Positions 2,792 to 28,481 of a stretch of DNA of 44,815 nt are shown piece after piece (the stretch's first letter is position 1; every line of letters begins with the position of its first letter). The DNA is taken from positions 1-44,815 of IMG/VR virus record IMGVR_UViG_3300045988_148821. One strand, given 5' to 3'. The DNA comes from a virus. The position numbers and the translations under genes were made by a program. The notes beneath the pieces are model-generated. The model searched no databases. It was given only the letters and a program-made list of their open reading frames with translations, and was not told the origin of the DNA.

Positions 2792-3204
2792 AAGACTACG
2801 TTTACATGGTGGCGGTCGTCTTGGCCTTCGGCGCGGGGGCTTGGTTGACCTCCGCGCACTATGACCGGGAAATTGCCCTCATGGAGGCGGCGCAGTCTGA
2901 CGCGCTGCGGGCGGCGGAGAGAAAGAATGCAGAAGGACTTTCAAAAGCAACAGACACGATCAACTTGGCGCAAGCTGAGTACAACGATTTGCGCAGTGAG
3001 CTTGATCGTGCTCGCGCCCGGTTGCGCCACGCGGACGGTAACGGCTCCGCCGGCGGAGATTCCGCAGACACTCTTAAAAAGCGAGTTGCCCGACTGGAAG
3101 GCCTGGTTCAAAGATTGGCTGACTCTGGTTCAGAGTGCGGCCGACTCTATCAGCGGTGTGCCGCAAACCACGACGCATTAGCTGCAGTAGTAGGAGGAAA
3201 GTAA
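2788..3204 (+). CDS. i-spanin (Rz-like)
   Basis: N-terminal TM (VYMVAVVLAFGAGAWLTS) followed by a long charged coiled-coil region. An embedded +1-frame lipoprotein ORF lies within it, downstream of the endolysin. Confidence 0.8.
   Translation: MKDYVYMVAVVLAFGAGAWLTSAHYDREIALMEAAQSDALRAAERKNAEGLSKATDTINLAQAEYNDLRSELDRARARLRHADGNGSAGGDSADTLKKRVARLEGLVQRLADSGSECGRLYQRCAANHDALAAVVGGK
2927..3181 (+). CDS. o-spanin (Rz1-like lipoprotein) fully embedded in the i-spanin gene
   Basis: ATG 2927 with GGAGAG 6 nt upstream. Signal-like TTICAVSLIVLAPGC with a Cys for lipidation (lipobox slightly non-canonical) and a Pro-rich mature part (TAPPAEIPQ). Confidence 0.7.
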   Translation: MQKDFQKQQTRSTWRKLSTTICAVSLIVLAPGCATRTVTAPPAEIPQTLLKSELPDWKAWFKDWLTLVQSAADSISGVPQTTTH

Positions 3205-3205
3205 G

Positions 3206-3409
3206 ATGGAAGCGGTAAAGGTATTCTGCCCGGAATGCGGGAAGCGTCTCTTCGACCTATCGCTCGAACACCCTCCGGGTGGTACGCTACGGATACGGTG
3301 TCGCAAGTGCAAGACGCTTGATGTATTTGACCTTTCTGTATACAATAAACCCGATCTGCAGAACCGTTCGGATTCTGCTTCACACAAGGCCCCTGAGCCT
3401 AATCCTTAG
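3206..3409 (+). CDS. Mu Com-like zinc-finger protein (putative translational regulator)
   Basis: VFCPECGKRLFDL...LRIRCRKCKTLDVF matches the Com pattern C-x2-C-x-K-x-LF ... IRC-x2-CK (four Cys). 67 aa. Confidence 0.7.
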   Translation: MEAVKVFCPECGKRLFDLSLEHPPGGTLRIRCRKCKTLDVFDLSVYNKPDLQNRSDSASHKAPEPNP

Positions 3410-11372: not shown

Positions 11373-11394
11373 TTGCTTTCTCCTTCCCCCGGCG

Positions 11395-11445
11395 GGATGA
11401 TTAACGGCGCAGGGCCTAGCAATCTCTGCTTTCCGTTAATCATCC
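11395..11445. repeat. 13-bp perfect inverted repeat in the divergent spacer 11373-11462
   Basis: GGATGATTAACGG (11395-11407) pairs with CCGTTAATCATCC (11433-11445). The 3' arm abuts the SD AAGGAGGA of the gene at 11463. Confidence 0.65.
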
Positions 11446-12834: not shown

Positions 12835-12920
12835 GCAGTTGACAGAGTACACCCTAAATGGACTCTGTGTAGGTGCGAGGCTATGGACAAACGCCACTTC
12901 AAATGGATATAATTGTCTCA
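12835..12920 (+). promoter_or_regulatory. OR/PR region: PR-like promoter and operator-like repeats
   Basis: -35 TGGACA (12884-12889), 18-nt spacer, -10 TATAAT (12908-12913). ACAGAGT-N13-ACTCTGT (12842-12868). GACAAACG (12886-12893) and a 12/14 match to the OL 14-mer. Confidence 0.6.
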
Positions 12921-12945
12921 CTTAAATTGACTGAGTGAGGTTTAA

Positions 12946-13167
12946 ATGGATTTTGACTTGAAGAATGTCAACGTCGTTTCCTTGGCGTTGCTGAAATTCA
13001 AAACCCAGAAATGTCTTGCTGAAAGGCTTGGCGTTAGTAAGCAGACGATTTCGATGTGGAAACACAAACGTGTTAGCGCTGACCGTGTCAACGATTTTTC
13101 TGATGCCACCGGTATACCACGTTCATTGATTCGACCGGATTTGTATCCGGAAGCGAAAGAGCTGTAA
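12946..13167 (+). CDS. cro: Cro/YdaS-like HTH regulator
   Basis: LAERLGVSKQTISMWKHKRVSADRV...IRPDLYP; 73 aa; first gene of the rightward operon. Confidence 0.75.
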   Translation: MDFDLKNVNVVSLALLKFKTQKCLAERLGVSKQTISMWKHKRVSADRVNDFSDATGIPRSLIRPDLYPEAKEL

Positions 13168-14647: not shown

Positions 14648-14943
14648 CCAAACCTAAAACCATAGAAATCGTCAGCTATGACGGAAAGTATCCGAACCTG
14701 TGCCGCGGACGCTTAACGCTCAAAGTCGGCGGGAAAGAATACGTCACGCACCCCGGGGTGCTGTGTCCCGGTGAAGGTGCTGGGTGCAGCTGTGATAGCG
14801 ATGGTAATTGGACGACGGATCGCGGCGATTGGTTCGTTTATCCGGAGGATCTACCGAAGGAAATCCGACGCTATGCAGCCCGGATTGAGGCCGCCGTTAA
14901 TGAGTCTGATATTGAAAAGCCGTGCTGCGGCGGCTGCATTTAG
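14644..14943 (+). CDS. Cys-rich hypothetical protein (99 aa)
   Basis: ATGA-coupled. Cys clusters LCRG, LCPGEGAGCSC and a C-terminal PCCGGCI. Confidence 0.55.
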   Translation: MTKPKTIEIVSYDGKYPNLCRGRLTLKVGGKEYVTHPGVLCPGEGAGCSCDSDGNWTTDRGDWFVYPEDLPKEIRRYAARIEAAVNESDIEKPCCGGCI

Positions 14944-16103: not shown

Positions 16104-16456
16104 CTTTGACCGCTTGGGATATTTATTGGGTGACGCGGCTGGATGAGATCAGCATCGCGCTTGGGATTGCGATTCCGGTGCTGCTTATTGTGCTCGCGCT
16201 CTCGACGTTTGTGTACTTCGTGACTGAGTTTGAAATCAAGGGGGCGAAAAAACTTGCGTGCGGGCTTGTCCCGTGGATCGTTGGGTTGACGCTGGTGAAT
16301 ACGCTCATCCCCAACACAAAGCAGGCCGCCGCGATGATCGTTCTTCCGGCAATCGTCAACTCTGAGGCCGTGCAGCAGCTTCCGGGTGAACTCACGACGT
16401 TGGCCCGGGAATGGTTGCAGGAATTACGGCCCGCGAAGAAGGGAGGTGCGAAATGA
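16100..16456 (+). CDS. Membrane protein (118 aa, about 3 TM)
   Basis: Hydrophobic segments IALGIAIPVLLIVLALSTFVYFV and LVPWIVGLTLVNTLI. Confidence 0.55.
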   Translation: MTLTAWDIYWVTRLDEISIALGIAIPVLLIVLALSTFVYFVTEFEIKGAKKLACGLVPWIVGLTLVNTLIPNTKQAAAMIVLPAIVNSEAVQQLPGELTTLAREWLQELRPAKKGGAK

Positions 16457-16656
16457 AAACGCCTGCCGGAGTTTCTAACGCTGTCGCTACGAAACTGAAC
16501 CGCGCTTACAAGACCGGGCATGACGTGGGGCTTAAGGGCTCGGCACCTTCCGTAGAGGCCGCGCAGTTCAAGACGACACTTGAGCAGCGGTATTTCTGGA
16601 TGGGCGTCTGCGACGCTCAGGTCGAAAAGAACAACAGGGAGGATGAGAGCGAATGA
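16453..16656 (+). CDS. Hypothetical protein (67 aa)
   Basis: ATGA-coupled on both sides. Confidence 0.5.
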   Translation: MKTPAGVSNAVATKLNRAYKTGHDVGLKGSAPSVEAAQFKTTLEQRYFWMGVCDAQVEKNNREDESE

Positions 16657-17029: not shown

Positions 17030-17236
17030 ATGGATGACGAGAACTTTCACACCTTGCTGCCCGAGTGGGCGCAACTCCTTCTCCGGAAAGCGGCATCCGT
17101 CCCCAATACTCCGGAAGACCCGCGCAACCGGGACAAGTGTATCGAGACCGTCGACCACGAATTGCGGCTCCGGATACCGGGTGCATTTGTCTCCGACCGA
17201 GACGCCCAAAATGTTGTATGTCGAAAGAAACGATAG
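17030..17236 (+). CDS. Hypothetical protein (68 aa)
   Basis: ATG 2 nt after the rusA stop; coding-like. Confidence 0.45.
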   Translation: MDDENFHTLLPEWAQLLLRKAASVPNTPEDPRNRDKCIETVDHELRLRIPGAFVSDRDAQNVVCRKKR

Positions 17237-17429
17237 AAACCAGCCCGTCGGCCAGTCACATCACTGGGCCCGGTGGACGGACGCCGAAGTCCGGTGGGTA
17301 CTGCAACTGCATGAGGGCGGCATGAGTTACACCCGGATTTCGGAAAAGCTGGACATGCCGCGGTCTACGGTGGCTGCCATCTGCCGCGGCGAAATCCGGC
17401 CAAGGATTAACGAGTTGAGGCGAGCATGA
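17211..17429 (+). CDS. Small HTH protein (72 aa), candidate late regulator or terminase DNA-recognition partner
   Basis: WTDAEVRWVLQLHEGGMSYTRISEKLDMPRSTVAAICRG helix-turn-helix. The stop overlaps the terS ATG (ATGA). Confidence 0.5.
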   Translation: MLYVERNDRNQPVGQSHHWARWTDAEVRWVLQLHEGGMSYTRISEKLDMPRSTVAAICRGEIRPRINELRRA

Positions 17430-17833
17430 CCGAGAAGAAGGAGACGACGAAGAAAGCCAAAGCAGCGCCCGCCAAGAAGGCCAAAAAAGGGGTACCTAAT
17501 TCGGAGGCAACACAGTTCAAAAGCGGTGCTAAAGCGGTGGAAAGTGGCCGAAAAGGTGGGGTTGCGTCCGGACAGGCAAAACGTGAGAAAAAAATTCTCA
17601 CCGAGATTCTCCTGAAGAAGTTGGCAAAGAAACTTCCGGACGGCGGCACGGTGGGTGAAGCCGTGGTGGATTCCATCATTGCAACGGCTATGGGCGGCGA
17701 CGTCAAGGCCTTTGTCGCCATTGCCGACCGCGTTGAAGGTAAGCCCGTGCAGCAGGTTGACCTTTCTGGAGAATTGTCGGTGGCTGACCGTTTGTTGGCC
17801 GCCCGGGCGAGGATGCAGCAGAAAAATGATTGA
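17426..17833 (+). CDS. terS: Putative terminase small subunit
   Basis: Lys-rich N-terminus, position immediately upstream of and overlapping terL, 135 aa. Confidence 0.55.
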   Translation: MTEKKETTKKAKAAPAKKAKKGVPNSEATQFKSGAKAVESGRKGGVASGQAKREKKILTEILLKKLAKKLPDGGTVGEAVVDSIIATAMGGDVKAFVAIADRVEGKPVQQVDLSGELSVADRLLAARARMQQKND

Positions 17834-19406
17834 TGAGTTGAACCAAGAATTAGCGGATTTCATTGGGCAGTTCTACGCCGATCCCTTGGGGTATGTTCTC
17901 GCCGCGTACCCGTGGGACTCGAACCCGTCCATCCAGTTGTGTACCCTTCCGGAACCGTGGCGGGCTCGGTATCCCAACTGCCACTACGGCCCTGATGCTT
18001 GGAGTTGCCGCGTAATGGATGAGATTGGCCGCCAGGTGCGTGAGAACGCCTTTGATGGCCGGCACGCCGTGAAGCCTATTCGGATCGCTGTCAGCAGCGG
18101 CCACGGCATCGGCAAGTCCTGCCTGAGTTCCTGGCTGATTGACTGGATCATGAGCACCCGGCCCTACGCGAAGGGTACGGTGACCGCTACGACAAACGGT
18201 CAGCTGGCGACGCGTACGTGGGCCCAGATCAAGTCTTGGACGACCAAAGCCCTGACTTACGATTGGTTCGACGTGAAGGACGGCCGCGGCTCCATGGAAC
18301 TGCGCAGTCGTGAAGCGCCCTCCGAATGGTTTGTCTCGGCCCAGTCCTGCCGCAAAGAGAACTCCGAAGCCTTTGCCGGTCAGCATGCCGCCAACTCGAC
18401 GTCGTTCTACCTTTTCGACGAGGGTTCCGGTATCGACGACAAAATCTATGAGGTGGCAGAAGGCGGCCTCACGGACGGTGAGCCGATGTTCTTTGTCTTC
18501 GGCAACCCTACCCGAAACTCCGGCGCTTTCTACGACATTTTCCACAAGTACCGAGACCAGTGGACGTGCTTCAAGATCGACAGCCGCGAGGCCCAGATTA
18601 CCAATAAGCCCGCTATCCAGGCCTGGATCGACCTCTATGGCTATGACTCCGACTTTGTCCGCGTCCGTGTCCGGGGCGAGTTCCCGAACGCGTCCGACTG
18701 CCAGTTCATTCCGCAGAACATCGTAGAAGCCGCAATGGCCCGGCCGTCCATGGAATTCCACCCGGGCGAGCATCCGGTGTGCGTGGTTGGGGTGGACTTG
18801 GCCGGCCCCGGTTCCGACGATACGGCAATTGCCACGCGTATCGGCCCTGAAGTTCTCAAGATTGAGGCTTTCCACGAGACGAGCGTCACGGCGATGTGTA
18901 CCCGCATCAAAGAGCACGTCAATTGGCTTTACGACACCTACGGCTTTGAAAAGGTCTACGTCTTCATGGACAGCGGTGGTATCGGCTACCCGTACGTCAC
19001 CCTGCTTAAGGAGTCCAACTTCCCGGTGAACGGGGTGAACTTTGGCCAAGGCGCCGACAAGCCGATGGTGTACCTCAACAAGCGCTCGGAAATGTGGGCC
19101 CGCATGAAGGAATGGTTGCAGGGCCCGATGGCTAAGCTGCCCGACGACGATGACCTCAAGTATGACCTTGTGGCGCCGGAGTACTTCCACCAGATTACCG
19201 ACAACCGCCTGGCGCTCGAGTCCAAGGAGGAGATGAAGAAGCGCGGTCTGCATTCCCCCGACAAGGCCGACGCGCTGGCCCTCACGTTCGCTGAAATTGT
19301 CTACGAGCGTGCCCAGTCTGTGGGCCCGGATCAGGGGCGCGCCAGTTACTTCACCCGCGAGTCCCGTCGCAACTCTCTCTCCAACCGCCGCCGCTTCAAT
19401 CGCTAG
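17826..19406 (+). CDS. terL: Terminase large subunit
   Basis: Walker A VSSGHGIGKS and Walker B FYLFDEGSG, with a C-terminal nuclease-like half. ATG 17826 overlaps the terS end; the ORF-track start 17655 is a spurious extension. Confidence 0.9.
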   Translation: MIDELNQELADFIGQFYADPLGYVLAAYPWDSNPSIQLCTLPEPWRARYPNCHYGPDAWSCRVMDEIGRQVRENAFDGRHAVKPIRIAVSSGHGIGKSCLSSWLIDWIMSTRPYAKGTVTATTNGQLATRTWAQIKSWTTKALTYDWFDVKDGRGSMELRSREAPSEWFVSAQSCRKENSEAFAGQHAANSTSFYLFDEGSGIDDKIYEVAEGGLTDGEPMFFVFGNPTRNSGAFYDIFHKYRDQWTCFKIDSREAQITNKPAIQAWIDLYGYDSDFVRVRVRGEFPNASDCQFIPQNIVEAAMARPSMEFHPGEHPVCVVGVDLAGPGSDDTAIATRIGPEVLKIEAFHETSVTAMCTRIKEHVNWLYDTYGFEKVYVFMDSGGIGYPYVTLLKESNFPVNGVNFGQGADKPMVYLNKRSEMWARMKEWLQGPMAKLPDDDDLKYDLVAPEYFHQITDNRLALESKEEMKKRGLHSPDKADALALTFAEIVYERAQSVGPDQGRASYFTRESRRNSLSNRRRFNR

Positions 19407-19450
19407 GGGGTGCAGTTGTTGCCCTCTTTCTCCGCCGATCATGCCGGCGA
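19404..19450 (+). promoter_or_regulatory. Late bipartite element copy 2
   Basis: TAG(terL stop)-GGGG-TGCAGTTGTTG (19411-19421), 19-nt spacer, ATGCCGGCGA (19441-19450). Confidence 0.6.
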
Positions 19451-19461
19451 AGGAGGAGGGC

Positions 19462-19923
19462 ATGACTATTTCTGTGCGGATGACGCCGGTCAAAGCATTG
19501 GCCGACGACAAATTCAGGTCGTTGTTTGATCTGTATGCCGCAGAGTCCGGCATCGAATCGTTCGGCAATTGGGCCGTGGCGTGGCAGAACTATGAAGCGC
19601 TGGAGAACACCGGCTGCCTGGTGGTGTATGTCGCCTACGACGATGACACGCCTGTGGGCATTGTCGGCTGCCTGATAACGCTTCACCTGCATTACCGCGT
19701 CCCGATGTTGGCAACGGACGGCTTTTTCGTTCTTCCGGAATACCGTGACAAAGGCGTAGGCGGACGCTTGCTGGCGTCAGCCTACCGCCTGGCTAAGGCC
19801 AAACGCATTGAGCACGTTGAGATCAGCTGCCCGCCCGGCGGACACCTCGACCGCAGTCTGTCTGTTAAGCCCTACTTCACCTTGGTTTCCAAAATCTACG
19901 AAAGGAGCTTCAAATGGGGTTAG
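19462..19923 (+). CDS. GNAT-family N-acetyltransferase
   Basis: Motif A RDKGVGGRLL within a GNAT-sized (153 aa) protein. AAGGAGGA upstream of ATG 19462. Confidence 0.75.
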   Translation: MTISVRMTPVKALADDKFRSLFDLYAAESGIESFGNWAVAWQNYEALENTGCLVVYVAYDDDTPVGIVGCLITLHLHYRVPMLATDGFFVLPEYRDKGVGGRLLASAYRLAKAKRIEHVEISCPPGGHLDRSLSVKPYFTLVSKIYERSFKWG

Positions 19924-20230: not shown

Positions 20231-21985
20231 ATGAAGGCTAAAGCATCAGAGCTGCGCCAACGGCTTGCCCAGATGAAGGCGACTCGAACGTCCATAGAGC
20301 CGCTTTATCGCAAGCTGCAGCGCTATATCCTGCCTGAAACGGGGCGGTTCGACGAGGTGCCCGGGGTCGAGTCCGAAGAGACCGGCTACGAGTTTATCAA
20401 CGACGCGACGGCCACGGACGCAATAGACGTTCTCGGTGCCGGCATGTTGGGCGGCATGACGTCGCCGGCGCGCCCGTGGTTCCGGCTTACAACGCGCTCT
20501 CCGGAACTGGACGAGAACACCAACGTCAAGCGCTGGCTCTCTGAGCTGCAGACCGAAATGCAGATGGTGTTCGCCAAGTCCAACGTCTACCAGGCGCTCA
20601 ACAATGCCTACCTGGAACTCGCCTGCTACGGCACGGCCTGCCTGGTGGCGCTGCCGTCCGACCGCAGGGTTATCCATTTGCATGAGATGACCGCCGGCGA
20701 GTACTGGATCGAGGAGGACGCAGAGCAGCGGGTGAACACCGTTTATCGGCAGATCGTCATGACGTCTGCTCAAATGGTGGAAGTCTTCGGAGAGTCCGCC
20801 GTGAGCGATGGTGTACGCGAGGAGGCCAAGAACCCCGCCGCATGCTTCAGGACGCACACGGTCATCCATGCCATTGAACCGCGCCCGGACTACGACCCGA
20901 CGAAGAAGGATAAGTACTCCATGCCTTACCGCGGGGTGTATTTCGAAGAGGCGGCCGGCCAGTACACCTACGAAATCGGATCGGATGAACTTCCGAACGC
21001 ACAGGATCGAGTGCTGCGGGAAGAGGGCTTCAAGACGTTCCCGTGCCTTGTTCCGCGTTGGGCTATCAGCAAGCGGTCTCCCTATGGCCGCAGCCCCGGC
21101 ATGAAGGCCCTGGGCGTCGTTATGGCCCTGCAGGAAGAGACGACCATCAAGGAGCGCGCTACGGACTACACGGTGAACCCGCCGTTGCTCGTTCCGGAAG
21201 AGTACGAAAGCAAGCCGCTCGACTTCGGCCCCGGCGGCGTCAGCTACTGCAACCTCACGCAGGCACAGCAGGTGAAGACCGCTTGGGACGTCAGGTTAGA
21301 TCTCAACGCCGTCAAGGTGGACATTGACGACAAGCGCCAGAGCATCAACAACTACTTCTACAAGGATCTTTTCCTCATGCTGGCCCAGACGGCTCGCTAC
21401 GGTCGCACAGCTTACGAGGTTGAAAAGCTCGACAAGGAAAAGATGCTGATTATGGGCCCGGTGCTCGAGCGCCTTCACCTCGAACTTCTCGACCCGCTGA
21501 TCGCGACGACCCTGCAGTGCATGCAGCGCTTCGACCTGATCCCGCCGATGCCCGACGAGATTAAAAGCCTGGACAGTATTTTCGGGGAACGTGAGTACAC
21601 GCAGAACGCCGAAGAGAAGGGGCCGGGCGACTACATCAACATTGAGTACGTGTCGATCCTGGCGCAGGCCCAGCGTGCCGCTGGCGTGGATGCCATGAGT
21701 ACCTACGTTCAAAGCCTGGCCGGTGCCTCTCAGGTTTGGCCGAACGCTATCGACAATCTCGACGAGGACAAGTGGGCCCGCAAGCTAGCCGACCAGTTGG
21801 GGGTCGATCCGGAAATCATCCCGAGTCAGGAAGAAGTGGATCAGAAGCGCGAACAACGGGCCCGGCAACAGCAACAGGCCCAACAGCTCGAGTCCGCCAA
21901 GCAGCTCTCCGACATTGCCAAAAACATCCCGCAGGCGAGTTCGGCCGACGCCATGAAAGCCATGAGCGGATATGCCGGCATGTAG
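20231..21985 (+). CDS. Portal (head-to-tail connector, T7/BPP-1 type)
   Basis: 584 aa; position after terminase; N-terminal pattern LAQMKATRTSIEPLYRKLQRYILPETGRF typical of podovirus connectors. Confidence 0.8.
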   Translation: MKAKASELRQRLAQMKATRTSIEPLYRKLQRYILPETGRFDEVPGVESEETGYEFINDATATDAIDVLGAGMLGGMTSPARPWFRLTTRSPELDENTNVKRWLSELQTEMQMVFAKSNVYQALNNAYLELACYGTACLVALPSDRRVIHLHEMTAGEYWIEEDAEQRVNTVYRQIVMTSAQMVEVFGESAVSDGVREEAKNPAACFRTHTVIHAIEPRPDYDPTKKDKYSMPYRGVYFEEAAGQYTYEIGSDELPNAQDRVLREEGFKTFPCLVPRWAISKRSPYGRSPGMKALGVVMALQEETTIKERATDYTVNPPLLVPEEYESKPLDFGPGGVSYCNLTQAQQVKTAWDVRLDLNAVKVDIDDKRQSINNYFYKDLFLMLAQTARYGRTAYEVEKLDKEKMLIMGPVLERLHLELLDPLIATTLQCMQRFDLIPPMPDEIKSLDSIFGEREYTQNAEEKGPGDYINIEYVSILAQAQRAAGVDAMSTYVQSLAGASQVWPNAIDNLDEDKWARKLADQLGVDPEIIPSQEEVDQKREQRARQQQQAQQLESAKQLSDIAKNIPQASSADAMKAMSGYAGM

Positions 21986-22029
21986 GGGGGTGCAGTTGTT
22001 GACGAAATCACAGAGGAAGATGCCGGCAT
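21983..22029 (+). promoter_or_regulatory. Late bipartite element copy 3
   Basis: TAG(portal stop)-GGGGG-TGCAGTTGTTG (21991-22001), 18-nt spacer, ATGCCGGCAT (22020-22029) overlapping ATG 22028. A second ATGCCGGCAT lies at 21972-21981. Confidence 0.6.
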
Positions 22030-22318
22030 GACAGCGAATGACAAACGCGCAGAGGCCAAGAAGAAGCAGGAGCAGGCCGCCCAGCAGGAGAAAAACGACT
22101 GGGAATGGTTCACTTCTGACGAACGCGGACTGCGCATTCTTCACCGGGCTATTGGCTTTTGCGGCGTGTTCCGCAACGGCTTTAACCCTAATGCGTTGAC
22201 GATGTCCTTCGGTGAAGGGCAACGCAACGTCGGTTTGTATCTGTGGGATCGGCTCGCGCGGTTCACGCCCGAGAAAGTCCCGCATTTTTTAGAGATGAGA
22301 GACAGCGATGGCTATTGA
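22028..22318 (+). CDS. Bbp19-like small head-module protein
   Basis: WEWFTSDERGLRILHRAIGFCGVFRNGF...FGEGQRNVGLYLWDRL resembles the Bordetella phage BPP-1 Bbp19 family pattern. Confidence 0.6.
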   Translation: MTANDKRAEAKKKQEQAAQQEKNDWEWFTSDERGLRILHRAIGFCGVFRNGFNPNALTMSFGEGQRNVGLYLWDRLARFTPEKVPHFLEMRDSDGY

Positions 22319-23036
22319 AAACGCACCGGGTCAAAATTCAAACAACCCCGCCGCTGCAGCCGCACAGCCGGACGCAGCACCTGCCGCGGCTCCCCAGGAT
22401 CAGCCCCCGGCCACTCCGCCGGCCACGGATCCGAAGGCGCCGGACTCTCAGCCTGCCGCTAACGCCGGCGAAGGTGACCAGAAACCCGCAGAGGATCAGG
22501 ACGGCCTTTTAAAGGGCACGGATCCCCAGAAGCCCGAAGGGGAAGAAGGCAAGGAGGGCGATGAAGAAAAGCCGTCCGTGTTGGGCGCTCCCGAGGAGGG
22601 CTATCAGTTTGAAGGCTTCAACCCGGCTGACGCCGGCGTGCAGGCTTTCAGCGAAGTTGCCAAGGAGCTCGACCTGTCCCAGGACAGTGCAAACAAGCTC
22701 ATGGCGCAGACGATGGCCGGGATTCAGGCACAGCTTGCCAAACAGCGCGCAGAGCTTCGGCAGCAAGCCTTGTCGGACAAGGAACTCGGATTTACGGATC
22801 CGGCAGTCGTGAACCGAACCAACGCGGTTTTCGGTAAGTACTTCGCCGGCAAGCCTCAGCTGATGGCAAAGATTCGCGCCTTCAATCTGGACGTGGATCC
22901 GGACTTCATCGGAGTCATGAAGCAGTTGGGGGCCGATATGTCCGAAGGGACGTTCGTGCAAGGCAAGAAGGGCGCCGTGGATACAGGCGTCGAAGACTAT
23001 CGAAAGTTATATCCGAATACTCGTATGAACTACTAA
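22308..23036 (+). CDS. Putative scaffolding protein
   Basis: Ala/Pro/acidic low-complexity N-terminus and helical C-terminus, positioned between the portal and capsid genes. Confidence 0.55.
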   Translation: MAIENAPGQNSNNPAAAAAQPDAAPAAAPQDQPPATPPATDPKAPDSQPAANAGEGDQKPAEDQDGLLKGTDPQKPEGEEGKEGDEEKPSVLGAPEEGYQFEGFNPADAGVQAFSEVAKELDLSQDSANKLMAQTMAGIQAQLAKQRAELRQQALSDKELGFTDPAVVNRTNAVFGKYFAGKPQLMAKIRAFNLDVDPDFIGVMKQLGADMSEGTFVQGKKGAVDTGVEDYRKLYPNTRMNY

Positions 23037-23046
23037 GGAGACGCGA

Positions 23047-24033
23047 ATGTCTTATGGTTCTGGAACTTTACTTGACCTGAGCCGGCTCTCGAACAAGGTG
23101 CCGGCCTCGGTCATTCACACGATCATCAACGCCCAGCCGTTGCTTGACCAGATGTGCTTCACACCGAGCAACGACGGGGTGAATAACCGTTCGTCAGTGA
23201 TTACTGACTATCCGGAAGGGCAGTTCCGCCGCTTCAATCAGGGTACCAAGCCTGAGAAGGCCGGTGGCATCACGCAGGTTGATCCGACCTGCATGCTTAA
23301 TACCTGGTCGAAGATTGACGCCAAGGAACTGAAACTGAATGGGGGTTCGGCAGAATGGCGCTACAACCAGGAAAAGCCGTTCCAACGCGGTATCGCGAGC
23401 AAGGTGGCACGCACGATTTTCTGTGGGTCTCTCAAGTCTGACCCGGACAGTATTAACGGCCTTCGTACTCGCTATGGCAAGACGGGTGCCGGTTATGAAG
23501 ATGTGGTAATCAATGCCGGCGGTGAAGCGTCCGCGTCCAAGGGATTGACGGACATTTTCATCGTGAACTGGGACAGAACGTTGGTTCACGCTATCTATCC
23601 TAAGGAAGGGGTGGGCGGTCTGCAGATGACGGATCGAGGGGAACAGGATGCCTACGATGACCAGGGACGCCGCTTCCGTGCCGTGATTACGGACTACGAC
23701 TGGGATCTTGGTCTCGCCGTCGAAGACCGTCGACAGGTAGTGCGTATTGCCAACATCGACGTTGCTTCTCTTACGGCGGATGCTTCCGGCAGTTTGGACT
23801 TGGTCGATATGTTGATTGATGCGGTCGAAATGTTCCCGGAATCGCTTGGGGCAGGTGCCGCCATGTACATGACTGCCCCGCTCCGCGCCATGCTTCGCAA
23901 GCAGATTCGCCATTGCAAAAACGTCAATCTGGACTGGGAAACAGTGGCTGGCCGCAAGGTGGTCAGCTGGGACGGCATTCCGGTTCACAAGTTGCCGACT
24001 TCCATTCTTCCGAACTACGCCAAGCCCATCTAA
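23047..24033 (+). CDS. Major capsid protein
   Basis: 328 aa, strong SD (AAGGAG), canonical position; fold not verifiable by eye. Confidence 0.75.
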   Translation: MSYGSGTLLDLSRLSNKVPASVIHTIINAQPLLDQMCFTPSNDGVNNRSSVITDYPEGQFRRFNQGTKPEKAGGITQVDPTCMLNTWSKIDAKELKLNGGSAEWRYNQEKPFQRGIASKVARTIFCGSLKSDPDSINGLRTRYGKTGAGYEDVVINAGGEASASKGLTDIFIVNWDRTLVHAIYPKEGVGGLQMTDRGEQDAYDDQGRRFRAVITDYDWDLGLAVEDRRQVVRIANIDVASLTADASGSLDLVDMLIDAVEMFPESLGAGAAMYMTAPLRAMLRKQIRHCKNVNLDWETVAGRKVVSWDGIPVHKLPTSILPNYAKPI

Positions 24034-24464: not shown

Positions 24465-24488
24465 TAGACCGCTCGTCATGAGCAACCG

Positions 24489-24514
24489 CAGGGGCCTCGT
24501 GCCCCTGTTTTCGT
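24489..24514 (+). terminator. Rho-independent terminator after the capsid/decoration genes
   Basis: CAGGGGC-ctcgt-GCCCCTG followed by TTTTCGT. Confidence 0.8.
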
Positions 24515-24526
24515 ATGGAGATTTAA

Positions 24527-25147
24527 ATGGCGACTGAAGTAGATATTTGCAACACCGCCTTGTCGCTCCTGGGGTGCCGTGCGGACATAGCCAGTATCTC
24601 ACCGGTGGAGGGCGGCCGCTTTGCGGAGGTGTGCGCCCGAGAGTATCCGATTGCCCGGAACTTGGTGCTTGAGGCTCACGACTGGAGCTTTGCGTGCCGG
24701 CGGGCCAACTTAGCCGTTTTGCGCACCGACCTCTTCGGGTGGCAGTTCGGGTATGTTCGGCCGGCGGATGCCGTGAGCATTGTGGCCGTCGTTCCGGAAG
24801 ATGACAGATACTTTGAACACCCGCACGAATTCATTGTGGAGGCCGACCAGGAATCCGGGGTGAGCCTCATCCTCACAGATCTTCCGGGGGCCGTCTGTCG
24901 CTATCTGGCCCGCGTCACAAACACGTCACTCTTTCCGGAACAGTTCTGCCAGGCCGTGGCGTTCAAACTCGCGATGCGCCTTTCCGGAAACATCATCAAG
25001 GGGACGCCGGGGCAGCAGGTGGCGGTGAACCTTGAGAAGCAGTATCAGACGATTTTGGCGTCAGCCATTCATTTCGACATGAAGCAGCGCCGCAAAGATT
25101 TAGATCTCCGCGCGACGTGGTCTAAGAAGCGGGGGTTAAGAGTATGA
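24527..25147 (+). CDS. Head-tail adaptor / tail tubular protein A-like
   Basis: N-terminus EVDICNTALSLLGCRADIASISPVEGGRFAEVCAREYPIARNLVLEAHDWSFA matches the gp11-like adaptor pattern. Confidence 0.7.
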   Translation: MATEVDICNTALSLLGCRADIASISPVEGGRFAEVCAREYPIARNLVLEAHDWSFACRRANLAVLRTDLFGWQFGYVRPADAVSIVAVVPEDDRYFEHPHEFIVEADQESGVSLILTDLPGAVCRYLARVTNTSLFPEQFCQAVAFKLAMRLSGNIIKGTPGQQVAVNLEKQYQTILASAIHFDMKQRRKDLDLRATWSKKRGLRV

Positions 25148-27825
25148 CCGTAGTTACCCAAAAGAGTTTCGCCGGCGGCATCATGGGCCCGATGATGTTG
25201 GGCCGCAGCGATGACCCCAAGTATCAGGCCGGCCTGAAGGTGTGCCGGAACTTTATCTGCCTGCCCCAGGGGGCCGTCCAGAACCGCCCGGGGTTTGCGT
25301 ATGTGGCTGAGGCCAAGTATCCGGACAAGCGGGTGCGGCTGATTCCGTTCACGTTCTCCCGAGACCAGACGATGATCCTGGAGTTCGGCCACAAGTATGT
25401 CCGGTTCCACACCAACGGGAAGACGCTGCAGAACGATGACGGCACGCCCTATGAGATTGCGTCCCCGTACGACGCAGACGACGTCATGAAGCTGCATTAC
25501 ATCCAGTCGGCCGATATTCTGACGTTGGTGCACCACAGCTACCCACCAGCAGAGCTGAAGCGCTATAGCGTCCAGGATTGGCGATTCGAGACGATCAGTT
25601 TTAACCCGACGTTGGCGGCCCCGAAGAACGTGAAGGCGGTGAAGGCCACAACAGCCGAGAATGAAATCAACGCCGACAAGTACACCTTCAAGTACTGCGT
25701 GACGTCCCTCAACGCCGACCGCACGATTCAGTCAGAACGCAGCGCTATCGCCTGGTGCACGGCCAACATATACAACACCGGAACGACGATCAAGATTTCG
25801 TGGGATAAGGTGGACGGGGCGCAGTTCTACCGGGTATACCGCAACGAAGGCGGCGTCTACTCCTACATCGGCGAGACTGAAGAACTGGAAATCATTGATG
25901 ACAACATCGCTCCGGACAGCGAGTACACGCCGCCACGTATTGATGATCTTTTCCACGCGGCCAACGGTATTTCAGCGGTGACGGTGACCAACAGTGGTAG
26001 CGGGTATTCGGATGTTGTGAACGGAGTGAAATCATTAACGAGCGTTGATAAATCTTTTCTTGGCAACATTGGCAGCGGGATAGAGCCGACGTTTACGGTA
26101 AAAGTGCAAATAGTTGATGACGGAAATTCTGGATCTGGAGCCAAAGCGACCGCGGAATTCACGTCAGATGTAGGCCCAGACAGATGGTCTGAGGATGGCT
26201 ACAGACCAACGCGGTACGGCTACACGGTGACGGTTACGTCTATCAAGGTGACCAATCCCGGAAAGAATTACCTGAAACCGAGAGCTAAATTGACGCTTTA
26301 TGCCCACCACACGACCACTGGGCAAGGATTGGCCAGCGGTCGAGAAGTGGACTCAAAATTAAGCACCAAGACGGTCACCATGCCCCGTCAGAACTTGGCA
26401 GCCACGGCCTACGTTACCGATAAGACGGGGCGTGGGGCAGAGCTGCAGCCCGTGATTGTCGGTGGCAAGATTACCGAAATTAAGGTGGTGAAGAGCGGGG
26501 AGAACTATACGGAGCCCAAAGTGGTGATTAAGGCCTCTATCGGTTCTGGGGCGACTGCCACAGCAACGGTGGCAAAGGCGGCCGACTATCCCCAGTGCGT
26601 GACGTACTTTGAACAGCGTCGGGTATTCGCCGCTACGCCGACGCAGCCGCAGGGTATTTGGATGACGCGCACGGGCACGGGGAATGACTTCACGTATTCC
26701 ATTCCCGTGCGTCCGGATGATCGAGTGTCCTTCAAGATTGCCAGTCGTGAACGCCACGAGATTTTCCATTTGGTGCCGCTCAATCGTCTGATAGTCCTTA
26801 CGGAGGCGGGCGAATGGGTGGTGACGTCCGTCAATTCTGACGCCATCACGCCCGAGTCGGTGCAACTCAAAAGCCAGTCTTTTGTCGGCGCCAACATGGT
26901 TCAGCCGTTGATTGTGAACAATACTGTGCTCTATGCGTCCGCGCGTGGTGGGCATATCCGGGAACTGGGCTACAACTACAACGCCGGCGGCTATGTGACG
27001 GGCGACGTGAGTATCCGGGCTGCGCACCTTTTCGACAGCTATGAGGTGCTGGACGGGGCATTCGCTAAGGCACCGTACCCGATTGGGTGGTTCGTTAGCT
27101 CTTCCGGAAAGTTGCTGGGGTTCACATACGTCCCGGATCAGCAGATCGGGGCTTGGCACGAACACACGACGGACGGGATTTTTGAGTCCGTTGCAGCCGT
27201 GGCCGAAAACAAGATTGACGCCATTTATTGTGTGGTGCAGCGTGAGGTCAAAGGCGAGGTGCGCCGTTTTATCGAACGCATGGGCGAACGGGAACACGAC
27301 GATGATGCGGACGCCTTCTTTGTGGACTGCGGCGGAACGTATTCCGGAGAGCCGACGGACACGGTGACGGGACTCACGTGGCTCGAAGGAAAGACCGTCA
27401 ACATCTTGGCCGACGGGGCCGAGATGCCGCAGCAAGTGGTGAAGGACGGGACGATTAAGCTCGACGTTGAGGCGCGAACGATTCACGTCGGCCTGCCGAT
27501 TGATGCCGAGATTTGCACGTTGCCGGTGACAATTCCCATGAAGGACGGCTCCGACGGCGGTTCGGTCACCAAGAATGTCAACTCAGTGTTCATGCGCGTG
27601 TACCGGTCGAGCGGCATCTTTATTGGCCCGGAAGATGGTGAAGACGTTGAGTTCCGGCAGCGCACCACGGAAGACCCCGGCAGTCCTCCGGATCCGGTGA
27701 CGGGCGGCGTGGACATTGACCTGCAGCCCGAATGGAGTGATTCCGGAGCGGTGTCCGTCAAGCAGAAGTCGCCGCTGCCCCTGACCATTCTCAGCATCGC
27801 CGCCAATATGCAGCTCGGCGGGTAG
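25144..27825 (+). CDS. Tail nozzle / tail tubular protein B-like (893 aa) with a three-repeat insertion
   Basis: N-terminus QKSFAGGIMGPMMLGRSDDPKYQAGLKVCRNFICLPQGAVQNRPGF is typical of podovirus nozzle proteins. ATGA-coupled to the adaptor gene. Confidence 0.7.
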   Translation: MTVVTQKSFAGGIMGPMMLGRSDDPKYQAGLKVCRNFICLPQGAVQNRPGFAYVAEAKYPDKRVRLIPFTFSRDQTMILEFGHKYVRFHTNGKTLQNDDGTPYEIASPYDADDVMKLHYIQSADILTLVHHSYPPAELKRYSVQDWRFETISFNPTLAAPKNVKAVKATTAENEINADKYTFKYCVTSLNADRTIQSERSAIAWCTANIYNTGTTIKISWDKVDGAQFYRVYRNEGGVYSYIGETEELEIIDDNIAPDSEYTPPRIDDLFHAANGISAVTVTNSGSGYSDVVNGVKSLTSVDKSFLGNIGSGIEPTFTVKVQIVDDGNSGSGAKATAEFTSDVGPDRWSEDGYRPTRYGYTVTVTSIKVTNPGKNYLKPRAKLTLYAHHTTTGQGLASGREVDSKLSTKTVTMPRQNLAATAYVTDKTGRGAELQPVIVGGKITEIKVVKSGENYTEPKVVIKASIGSGATATATVAKAADYPQCVTYFEQRRVFAATPTQPQGIWMTRTGTGNDFTYSIPVRPDDRVSFKIASRERHEIFHLVPLNRLIVLTEAGEWVVTSVNSDAITPESVQLKSQSFVGANMVQPLIVNNTVLYASARGGHIRELGYNYNAGGYVTGDVSIRAAHLFDSYEVLDGAFAKAPYPIGWFVSSSGKLLGFTYVPDQQIGAWHEHTTDGIFESVAAVAENKIDAIYCVVQREVKGEVRRFIERMGEREHDDDADAFFVDCGGTYSGEPTDTVTGLTWLEGKTVNILADGAEMPQQVVKDGTIKLDVEARTIHVGLPIDAEICTLPVTIPMKDGSDGGSVTKNVNSVFMRVYRSSGIFIGPEDGEDVEFRQRTTEDPGSPPDPVTGGVDIDLQPEWSDSGAVSVKQKSPLPLTILSIAANMQLGG

Positions 27826-27865
27826 TGCAGTTGTTGGCCCCTGTGGCGTTGTGAAATGCCGGCAT
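27823..27865 (+). promoter_or_regulatory. Late bipartite element copy 4
   Basis: TAG(nozzle stop)-TGCAGTTGTTG (27826-27836), 19-nt spacer, ATGCCGGCAT (27856-27865). Confidence 0.6.
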
Positions 27866-27881
27866 TACCACGGGGGCAACA

Positions 27882-28481
27882 ATGGCCGGAGAATCCACAG
27901 GCTTGACGACCGTCCAGACCGCGGGGCTTTGGGGCACCGCGATTCAGGCCGTCGGCAGCATTTTTACCAGTTATCAGGCGTCACGCTCAGCGACGGAACT
28001 GTCGCGGATCCAGCAGCGTATCGCCGAGATCAATCAGCAGCGGGCGACGATTCAGGCGCAGGCAGCGCTTGCCGCCTCGAACCGCAACATCGCCAACATC
28101 ACGGGCCAGTACGGGCGCTTAAAGAGTAAGCAGCGCGTCGCCATGGCCGCCAACGGTATCGCCATAGGTTACGGATCCAGCAAGGAGATTTTGGCGACGA
28201 CCGACCTCTATAAGCAGCAGGACGCCAACACGGCCTATGCCAACGGACTCAATGCGGCTATGGGCTACATGAGCAAGGCGACGGCCCAGTATCAGGCGAG
28301 TATCGCTGCAGGCGGCAACAAGTCCAATTCCGGCCTGGTGGCGGCCGACAGTCTGCTTACCGGCATCACGAAGGTGGCCGGCTACTACGTGGATCAGGCG
28401 TCCCGCAACGCGCCGGCAGAGAACGCCGGCGGATCCACGAAGGATGCAGCGACCAACGAATATCCCCCGACCTGGGTTTAG
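27882..28481 (+). CDS. Internal virion protein (199 aa)
   Basis: Hydrophobic N-terminus (GLWGTAIQAVGSIFTS), Gln/Ala-rich helical body, located between the nozzle and large ejection proteins. Confidence 0.55.
   Translation: MAGESTGLTTVQTAGLWGTAIQAVGSIFTSYQASRSATELSRIQQRIAEINQQRATIQAQAALAASNRNIANITGQYGRLKSKQRVAMAANGIAIGYGSSKEILATTDLYKQQDANTAYANGLNAAMGYMSKATAQYQASIAAGGNKSNSGLVAADSLLTGITKVAGYYVDQASRNAPAENAGGSTKDAATNEYPPTWV

Follow-up and report, generated by a model that had tools for sequence, protein, structure and literature searches.

A box-and-hexamer element at the late gene junctions of BPP-1-like podophages: probable activator-dependent late promoters, often of predicted leaderless design

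What is the role of a short sequence that a phage repeats, in one orientation, between its late genes? The question is raised by IMG/VR record IMGVR_UViG_3300045988_148821, analysed here over its whole length of 44,815 nucleotides (nt; hereafter the window), in which the 11-mer TGCAGTTGTTG has five exact copies, at 1298, 19411, 21991, 27826 and 41780, all on the + strand and each at a late gene junction. A preliminary description of these repeats had left three explanations side by side: late promoters dependent on an activator or an alternative factor, repressor sites resembling the stoperators of mycobacteriophages, or an RNA element. We consider it likely that the five repeats are late promoters for the host sigma-70 polymerase, with a phage-specific box in the place of the -35 element that would be read by a 72-amino acid (aa) helix-turn-helix (HTH) activator. 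On sequence comparison, the window element is the local version of an element found across the family of BPP-1-like podophages; we infer promoter activity, start sites and the identity of the activator from its architecture, conservation and geometry in that family.

Dinucleotide-preserving shuffles of the window contained 0.04 +/- 0.20 copies of the 11-mer, and none of 100 shuffles had five. G residues precede all five copies of the box (box 1 in what follows), the G-run of copy 4 being broken by a TAG. Copies 2-5 lie at, or a few bases from, the TAG stops of the terL, portal, nozzle and giant protein genes, respectively, and copy 1 lies 3' of an intrinsic terminator (1202-1223) and 5' of the holin ATG (1357). 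The late intergenic spacers longer than 40 nt are 19407-19461, 21986-22027, 24465-24526, 27826-27881, 41777-41833 and 1192-1356; the element is present in every one of them except 24465-24526, which holds a terminator (24488-24508). On all these points our analysis agrees with the preliminary description, and the strings that it had placed downstream of box 1 were also found where it had put them (ATGCCGGCGA at 19441-19450, ATGCCGGCAT at 22020-22029 and 27856-27865, ATCCCGGCAT at 41809-41818). In five of five copies, a hexamer of the type nAnnnT or similar to TATAAT lies 26-27 nt past the G of GTGC. The predicted units are as follows:

1293-1335, + strand: predicted late promoter 1 (lysis cassette), with a G-run at 1293-1297, box 1 GTGCAGTTGTTG at 1297-1308, TTTACT at 1323-1328 and a start at about 1335.
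19406-19450, + strand: predicted late promoter 2, directly after the terL TAG (19404-19406), with box 1 at 19410-19421, GATCAT at 19437-19442, the discriminator GCCGGCG and a start at 19449/19450; the downstream gene is a GNAT-like open reading frame (ORF; ATG 19462), and the first bases of the predicted leader of about 12 nt are the Shine-Dalgarno (SD) sequence AAGGAGG.
21986-22030, + strand: predicted leaderless late promoter 3, after the portal TAG, with box 1 at 21990-22001, GAAGAT at 22016-22021, GCCGGC at 22022-22027 and +1 at ATG 22028 of the phrog_528 ORF (22028-22318).
27823-27865, + strand: predicted late promoter 4, with box 1 at 27825-27836, its first G being the G of the nozzle TAG, TGAAAT at 27852-27857, the discriminator GCCGGCA and a start at about 27864; the downstream gene encodes an internal virion protein (ATG 27882).
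41774-41818, + strand: predicted late promoter 5, after the giant-protein TAG, with box 1 at 41779-41790, GAGAAT at 41805-41810, the discriminator CCCGGCA and a start at about 41817; the downstream gene encodes the 751-aa tailspike (ATG 41834).

Megablast of the late region against cultured phages returned no nucleotide-level relative, and relatives were therefore sought through proteins. Protein-seeded searches gave near-identical contigs, five relatives with 75-81% portal identity (L001, L002, L007, L008 and L010; GC content 48-62%) and 79 more distant loci, reached through the C-terminus of the giant protein and including BPP-1. The five relatives all have box 1 after terL, portal and nozzle, in the form GTGCAGTAGTTG in L007 and L002, GTGCGGTAGT in L001 and GTGCAGTTGTC in L008 and L010. 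The palindrome ATGCCGGCAT, previously taken for a conserved second box, is lost in them, whereas the hexamer is kept 16-17 nt after GCAGTNGT. In the window and its relatives, the hexamers after terL are GATCAT, GATCAT, CATCAT, AACAAT, GATTCT and AATCCT, and those after nozzle TGAAAT, TTTCAT, TCTCAT, TTTAAT and TTGAAT. The second box was correctly located, but its definition as ATGCCGGCAT applies to the close kin of this phage only: it is made up of the last two bases of the -10 hexamer, the discriminator GCCGGC and the start site.

The same junctions carry the element well beyond these close relatives. Sites orthologous to promoter 2 occur in L001, L002, L007, L008 and L010 and at the terL-bbp24 junction of BPP-1; in the orthologues of promoter 3 in the same five relatives the hexamer lies 6-7 nt before the ATG, and many distant relatives have second copies at the promoter 4 junction. 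At the junction between the gp16-like and fibre genes of distant relatives, GGTGCACGTA, GGGTGCCCGTGCC, GTGCGCGTA or a similar box follows the stop codon directly, and then come 16 nt and TAGCCT, GACAAT, TACTGT and the like. In BPP-1, GGGTGCCCGTGCC stands four times in one orientation, before the probable true start of terS, the GNAT gene bbp24, bbp19 and the fibre gene bbp9; counted from the G of GTGC, the hexamer lies at exactly 26 nt in each, and the bbp19 site has the layout of promoter 3 of the window. In Jess A, a lytic phage of Caulobacter, GGTGCGCAT(G/A)A is likewise present four times, at equivalent places. Epsilon15, a more distant phage that served as a negative control, has neither the element nor a homologue of the 72-aa HTH protein at the equivalent position, and was too distant to be used as a relative.

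Two observations on individual loci may be added. In BPP-1 (L090, 26250-26318), the annotated start of terS (bbp26) is upstream of a GGGTGCCCGTGCC-N16-AAAACT-gcgcgc-ATG unit, and the true start of terS may be the downstream, leaderless ATG. In L033, the fibre-junction box is present in tandem triplicate (GTGCCCGTGCCCGTGCCCGTGCC, at about 11373-11400).

Across BPP-1-like podophages, the putative promoters have a common layout: GG-GTGCnnGT (box 1), then after 16-17 nt a hexamer nAnnnT, in most cases TAnnnT, followed by a GC-rich discriminator and the predicted start site. We searched the loci with seeds taken, for each locus, from its fibre junction and made of the ten bases that begin at GTGC (or GTAC, ATGC, GTGT); there were 28 variants. 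These seeds replaced an automated search for k-mers repeated after the stops of long ORFs, usable in low-GC loci but noisy in high-GC ones. At the fibre junction, the core was accompanied by a hexamer with A at position 2 and T at position 6, at an offset of 25-27, in 63 of 80 loci, against 6.8% of random positions, and by TAnnnT at exactly offset 26 in 44 of 80, against 0.5% of random positions. When no hexamer filter was applied, A....T stood at offset 26 in 19% of all seed matches, compared to 1-6% at the other offsets between 14 and 44 and to 4% on the minus strand. Position 1 of the hexamer was T in 59% of the sites without being imposed; the discriminator was 73% GC, its commonest forms being GCCGGC and GCGCGC.

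Of the non-redundant sites, 159 have a start codon 5-8 or 15-35 nt past the hexamer, and in this set the distance between the hexamer and the start of the next long ORF has two sharply separated modes. The class at 5-8 nt (mode 6-7), which we call leaderless, has 57 members, with ATG in 55 and an SD-like motif in 5; the leadered class (15-35 nt) has 102, with ATG in 83 and an SD-like motif in 80. An ATG lacking an SD sequence 6-7 nt past a -10 element is the hallmark of a leaderless mRNA, and such mRNAs would thus be implied for the 57 sites. Copy 3 of the window belongs to this class (GAAGAT-gccggc-ATG 22028). The leaderless mRNA previously suggested at this ATG holds as far as can be judged from sequence, the orthologues keeping the same geometry. 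The bimodality of this distance is, in our view, the strongest evidence that the elements would be promoters; an RNA-binding site or a repressor site gives no reason for the hexamer-ATG geometry.

Setting the hexamer at -12 to -7 puts box 1 at about -38 to -28, the usual position of a -35 element. A consensus scan found no + strand sigma-70 promoter at any of the five window sites, no TGn (extended -10) precedes the hexamer in the five copies, and TTGTTG, only 14-15 nt from the hexamer, is too close to it to be a -35. Lacking both a -35 and an extended -10, these sites would require that the host sigma-70 holoenzyme be helped at the upstream box, which is asymmetric and not a dyad. Of the phage genes that were scanned or called, none was recognized as encoding an RNA polymerase or a sigma factor; the largest early ORF (429 aa) is the integrase and the giant protein has polyvalent-protein domains only. 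The early promoters recognized in the preliminary description are both present, PR as TGGACA-N18-TATAAT (12884-12913) and a PL-like promoter as TTGACT-N17-TACACT (11995-11967, - strand), and their canonical -35 and -10 elements indicate that the host reads sigma-70 promoters. PR is flanked by three AAATGGA(C/T) repeats (12855-12951), unrelated to box 1, which are probably CI/Cro operators.

The protein that would provide this help is encoded just before the packaging genes:

17211-17429, + strand: candidate late activator, a 72-aa three-helix HTH protein, the stop of its gene overlapping the terS start (17426).

A tblastn search of BPP-1 with all window proteins detected one common non-structural protein, matching Bbp27 (44% identity, E 2e-10). 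The matching segment is the C-terminal part of ORF 17034-17429, and since homologues are 71-82 aa long, we take the gene to be 17211-17429. It lies directly upstream of terS in the window, in BPP-1 and in Jess A, and likewise in the other loci with a readable downstream gene. There are 261 homologues at E <= 1e-5, and of the named ones among the 120 matches listed, most are called "hypothetical protein" and a few bear a generic HTH-type name. Among 45 family members, Pfam recognized HTH_38 in 36, Sigma70_r4_2 in 13 and Mor in none, and the family has no dedicated Pfam entry. AlphaFold gives a three-helix HTH that bears an N-terminal arm (predicted local distance difference test score, pLDDT, 73). 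The nearest Foldseek neighbours of this model are the HTH domains of the IS21 transposase, of serine recombinases/resolvases and of NarL, none of them significant (best E 0.05). In the IS21 transposase and the serine recombinases, a single HTH domain recognizes an asymmetric site of about 12 bp, and by analogy this mode of binding would suit box 1.

Forty of the 42 regulator loci with at least 5 kb of downstream sequence carry + strand sites, and sites on the + strand outnumber those on the - strand (84 against 23). The recognition helix of the protein also varies together with the box. IGRICRY goes with GTGCACGT, that is GTGCAC(G/A)T; AKICRYERR, in otherwise very different proteins, goes mostly with GTGCCCGT; AKICRYE(M/I)R goes with boxes ending in CAT; and AAICRGEIR, the helix of the window protein, goes with GTGCAGTTGT. 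The observed association was reached in 3 of 2000 permutations, a statistic that ignores shared ancestry. From gene position and this co-variation, the 72-aa HTH protein probably reads box 1 as an activator. Just 5' of its own ATG (17211), GGGTGCATTTGT (17179-17190) is identical to box 1 at 11 of 12 positions and has CAAAAT at offset 26. We did not retain it as a sixth copy: it lies inside coding sequence, its predicted start would be past the regulator ATG, and L099 and L100 lack it. The match is probably due to chance but may be an autoregulatory site of the HTH gene.

In the mechanism that we propose, the 72-aa HTH protein would be the product of the distal end of the early-right operon, immediately ahead of terS, and would bind GG-GTGCAGTTGTTG as a monomer at about -38 to -28. 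The bound protein would recruit or stabilise the sigma-70 polymerase and so turn on five units: the genes from GNAT to portal, those of scaffold and capsid, the internal virion proteins, the tailspikes, and the lysis genes. The transcript of promoter 3 would start on the A of ATG 22028 and be leaderless, while promoters 1, 2, 4 and 5 would produce short leaders starting just upstream of the SD sequence.

Three of the five copies also coincide with RNA hairpins:

19418-19462, + strand: hairpin at promoter 2 (-36.2 kcal/mol, z -3.17, none of 200 shuffles as stable), with the 5' arm in the promoter spacer, the -10 in the loop and a 3' arm made of the SD sequence up to the ATG.
27830-27886, + strand: hairpin at promoter 4 (z -1.6), with core arms GCCCCTGTGG (27836-27845) and CCACGGGGGC (27867-27876) and the SD GGGGG within the 3' arm.
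41786-41851, + strand: hairpin at promoter 5 (-38.2 kcal/mol, z -4.94), in which the spacer and -10 region pair with the SD sequence, the start codon and the first tailspike codons.

In these copies (2, 4 and 5), the 5' arm lies in the spacer, the -10 in or near the loop, the predicted start between the arms, and the SD sequence or ATG in the 3' arm. The local hairpin of copy 1 is no better than shuffles (z 0.08), and copy 3 has none. The after-nozzle hairpin is kept in the five diverged relatives, with 6 of its 17 pairs changed on both sides, and in 17 distant relatives the fibre-junction hairpin shows compensatory changes in 6 of 7 consensus pairs. At leadered sites generally, complementarity between spacer and leader exceeds the mismatched-pair control (-12.7 versus -10.2 kcal/mol, p 8e-4), and the excess over a shuffled-spacer control is modest (8.75 versus 7.63 spanning pairs, p ~0.02-0.03); at leaderless sites, the excess over the mismatched-pair control is not significant. 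We therefore rejected the hairpin as a general feature of these promoters. No Rfam 15 family matched at the copies at a permissive threshold; a sub-threshold match of the promoter 2 hairpin (19419-19463) to a miRNA precursor, 33.8 bits for a gathering score of 82, is a coincidence of shape. In L001 (about 16427-16495) and L002 (about 14872-14940), the after-nozzle hairpin is followed by a T-run (GGGGGCTTTTTT), and the predicted promoter appears to be nested there inside a terminator-like structure.

We tentatively propose that these hairpins act as a lock, a possibility that we regard as less than even. Read-through RNA, carrying both arms, would hide its SD sequence, and RNA begun between the arms would be open; together with the leaderless members, this would lock the late blocks doubly to the activator, and the co-varying pairs of activators and boxes (28 box variants) would form orthogonal minimal switches. 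Alternatively, the hairpins may shield the preceding message at its 3' end or dampen read-through.

The comparative data favour the late promoters foreseen as the first of the three earlier hypotheses, through the fixed spacing of box and hexamer, the leaderless geometry at dozens of junctions and the co-varying HTH protein encoded beside terS. Several points weigh on the other side. Several window hexamers (GATCAT, GAAGAT, TGAAAT) are weak as -10 elements, and promoter function alone does not explain the conserved hairpins. In the window, terS has no copy of the element in front of it, so that terS and terL need another promoter. The association between helix and box may rest on few evolutionary events and is suggestive rather than conclusive; with a pLDDT of 73 and no significant structural neighbour, the fold does not tell an activator from a repressor. 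Searches by phage names, motifs and concept found no description of such a promoter family in the searchable literature.

The sites could be genuine late promoters whose box is read by another phage protein, by a host factor or alternative sigma, or by the HTH protein acting as a repressor or timer at the -35 position. The assignment of the activator draws on gene position, co-occurrence and helix-box co-variation, its fold is a generic three-helix HTH, and a protein sitting at -38 to -28 could in principle block the polymerase. We nevertheless judge this reading unlikely: phages of different hosts have different boxes, which follow the recognition helix of the phage protein, no sigma or other common regulator was found, and a pure repressor would leave promoters devoid of -35 and extended -10 without a means of being switched on. 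The hairpins are what an RNA-level element would bring, in which a single-stranded box and a hairpin hiding the ribosome-binding site are read by a translational activator, as Com does at Mu mom, or processed by a nuclease, as at the RNase III sites of T7. The strong hairpins of copies 2, 4 and 5 do pair with the SD sequence or AUG, compensatory changes maintain them, and the complementarity of leadered sites exceeds the mismatched-pair control (p 8e-4), so that an RNA-level layer seems to exist in leadered copies. As the primary function, however, it is improbable. Copy 3 and 57 sites of relatives keep box and hexamer with no excess of hairpins and mostly without an SD sequence, leaderless-class transcripts would not contain the box at all, and an RNA site leaves unexplained a hexamer at a fixed offset, 6-7 nt from the ATG. 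In addition to the lack of an Rfam match, the protein encoded at 3206-3409, labelled "Com-like" in the preliminary description, is not a Com homologue by Pfam: it matches generic zinc-ribbon models, all below cut-offs, and no Com family, with a match to a PHROG "translational regulator" at E 5e-4.

We give even less credence to stoperator-like sites, at which an immunity protein would block the elongating polymerase in the lysogen. The sites are indeed asymmetric, all oriented along transcription and abutting stop codons, as expected of stoperators, yet no copy lies at or near PR or PL, exact copies are confined to the late region and matches with 1-2 mismatches are at the chance level. The repeats at PR are of the AAATGGA type, each site has a -10 hexamer at one fixed offset, often with a start codon at +1, and the lytic Jess A has sites too. 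Box and hairpin also recall boxA/boxB, and all genes from PR onward are co-oriented with few terminators, as would suit processive antitermination of the nut or put type, in which they would modify polymerase coming from PR. The leaderless class and the fixed DNA geometry count against this as they do against an RNA-level element; the late region has two terminators only (1202-1223 and 24488-24508), neither of them shortly downstream of a site, and there is no boxA consensus. We find this explanation, too, highly improbable.

The predicted late promoters for host sigma-70 polymerase combine traits of several known systems. Like the middle promoters of T4, in which the MotA box is centred near -30, they are numerous and scattered through the genome and would associate a sigma-70 -10 (TAnnnT) with a phage box that takes the place of the -35 and is recognized upstream by a phage protein. 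MotA has two domains, whereas the candidate here is a single HTH of 72-80 aa, and the promoters are of a late class and many of them leaderless. GTGCAGTTGT is unlike the MotA box; no MotA or AsiA match was found among the profile-scanned proteins, and the regulator family matches generic HTH models only. Mu, a temperate phage as well, has four dispersed late promoters with a -10 and a poor -35, at which a small HTH activator of the Mor/C family binds over the -35 region (PMC4461284; bioRxiv 10.1101/2025.05.02.651988). Mor/C proteins, however, are dimers of 129-140 aa on dyad sites, in contrast to the asymmetric box of about 10-12 bp and the protein of half that size found here, and Pfam Mor had no match in the 45 family members. 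In phages of Gram-positive bacteria, the late activator RinA, ArpU or LtrC is encoded just upstream of terS and governs the genes of morphogenesis and lysis (PMC3152322, PMC3753634). Our candidate is likewise encoded directly 5' of terS, but those systems have one promoter upstream of terS, unlike the five dispersed ones of the window, none of which precedes terS, and no Pfam family specific to RinA, ArpU or LtrC was among the matches of the regulator family.

The gene order is that of T7, whose class III promoters (phi9, phi13, phi17) precede the scaffold block, the internal virion proteins and the tail fibre and abut the stop codon of the previous gene, with a terminator after the capsid gene. 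The late layout would mirror that of T7 with host polymerase, the predicted promoter sites standing after terL, before scaffold-capsid (followed by a terminator), before the internal virion proteins and before the tailspikes, and then a terminator and the lysis genes. T7 relies on a single-subunit polymerase of its own, with a 23-bp promoter; in this phage no polymerase was found and the -10 is of the sigma-70 type. The stoperators of cluster A mycobacteriophages are also short, asymmetric, co-oriented with transcription and often at stop codons, but their sequence is that of the operator at the early promoter, the immunity repressor binds them and they are found throughout the genome, whereas the window sites are all late, none at PR or PL, each coupled to a -10 hexamer. 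The lambda cI gene transcribed from PRM similarly has a -10 6-7 nt before an ATG without SD; that is a single regulatory gene, and here the design recurs in late structural operons across a phage family.

Activator-dependent late promoters without a -35, and RinA-type activators encoded beside terS, were already known (PMC4461284, PMC3152322, PMC3753634). What appears to be new is the promoter family with its tiny HTH partner, the frequent leaderless design and the nesting of promoters in hairpins that pair with the SD sequence. No late-transcription scheme for BPP-1-like podophages was found described in the searchable literature, and the present one offers a regulatory map for a widespread group that includes BPP-1, the model of diversity-generating retroelements, phages of Caulobacter and Limnohabitans, metagenomic contigs and prophages. 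It gives a testable function to an unnamed family of HTH proteins, improves gene starts by pointing to leaderless ATGs, such as that of BPP-1 terS, and suggests that structural operons are routinely translated without leaders in phages of Proteobacteria. If the activator assignment is true, proteins of 72-80 aa and boxes of 10-12 bp would make compact, naturally diversified pairs of activators and promoters.

The late genes and terminators between which the predicted promoters lie were assigned as follows, the genes with PHROGs/Pfam:

17655-19406, + strand: terL.
19462-19923, + strand: GNAT-like protein.
20231-21985, + strand: portal.
22028-22318, + strand: phrog_528.
22308-23036, + strand: protease/scaffold-like protein.
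23047-24033, + strand: capsid.
24488-24508, + strand: intrinsic terminator after the capsid and decoration genes.
24527-25147, + strand: tail tubular A.
25144-27825, + strand: nozzle.
27882-28481, + strand: internal virion protein.
30647-41776, + strand: giant polyvalent protein of 3709 aa.
41834-44089, + strand: tailspike of 751 aa.
1202-1223, + strand: intrinsic terminator after the second tailspike, ending the structural transcription unit upstream of promoter 1.
1357-1653, + strand: holin.

The capsid shares about 34% identity with its counterparts in BPP-1, BcepC6B and epsilon15. The window presents a contig of about 44.8 kb in circularly permuted form, and the second tailspike (619 aa, pectate-lyase fold and Peptidase_S74) spans the window ends, 44092-44815 being joined to 1-1191. 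The giant protein occupies the position of gp16; its polyvalent-protein domains are LPD23, DUF7178 and, as a weak match, ART-PolyVal, and what it has in common with the much shorter gp16-like proteins of BPP-1-like phages is limited to about 450 aa at its C-terminus. Near the zinc-ribbon gene, TGCAGTAGTAG at 3183 has neither the GTGC core nor any hexamer and was not counted as a copy of box 1. A small protein with a crAss001_48 ("Sequestin") domain is encoded at 2522-2791, in the lysis/accessory region. In the record of Jess A (L174), terL is annotated at both ends (19-1662 and 42955-44598), which suggests a long terminal repeat or an assembly overlap in the deposited sequence.

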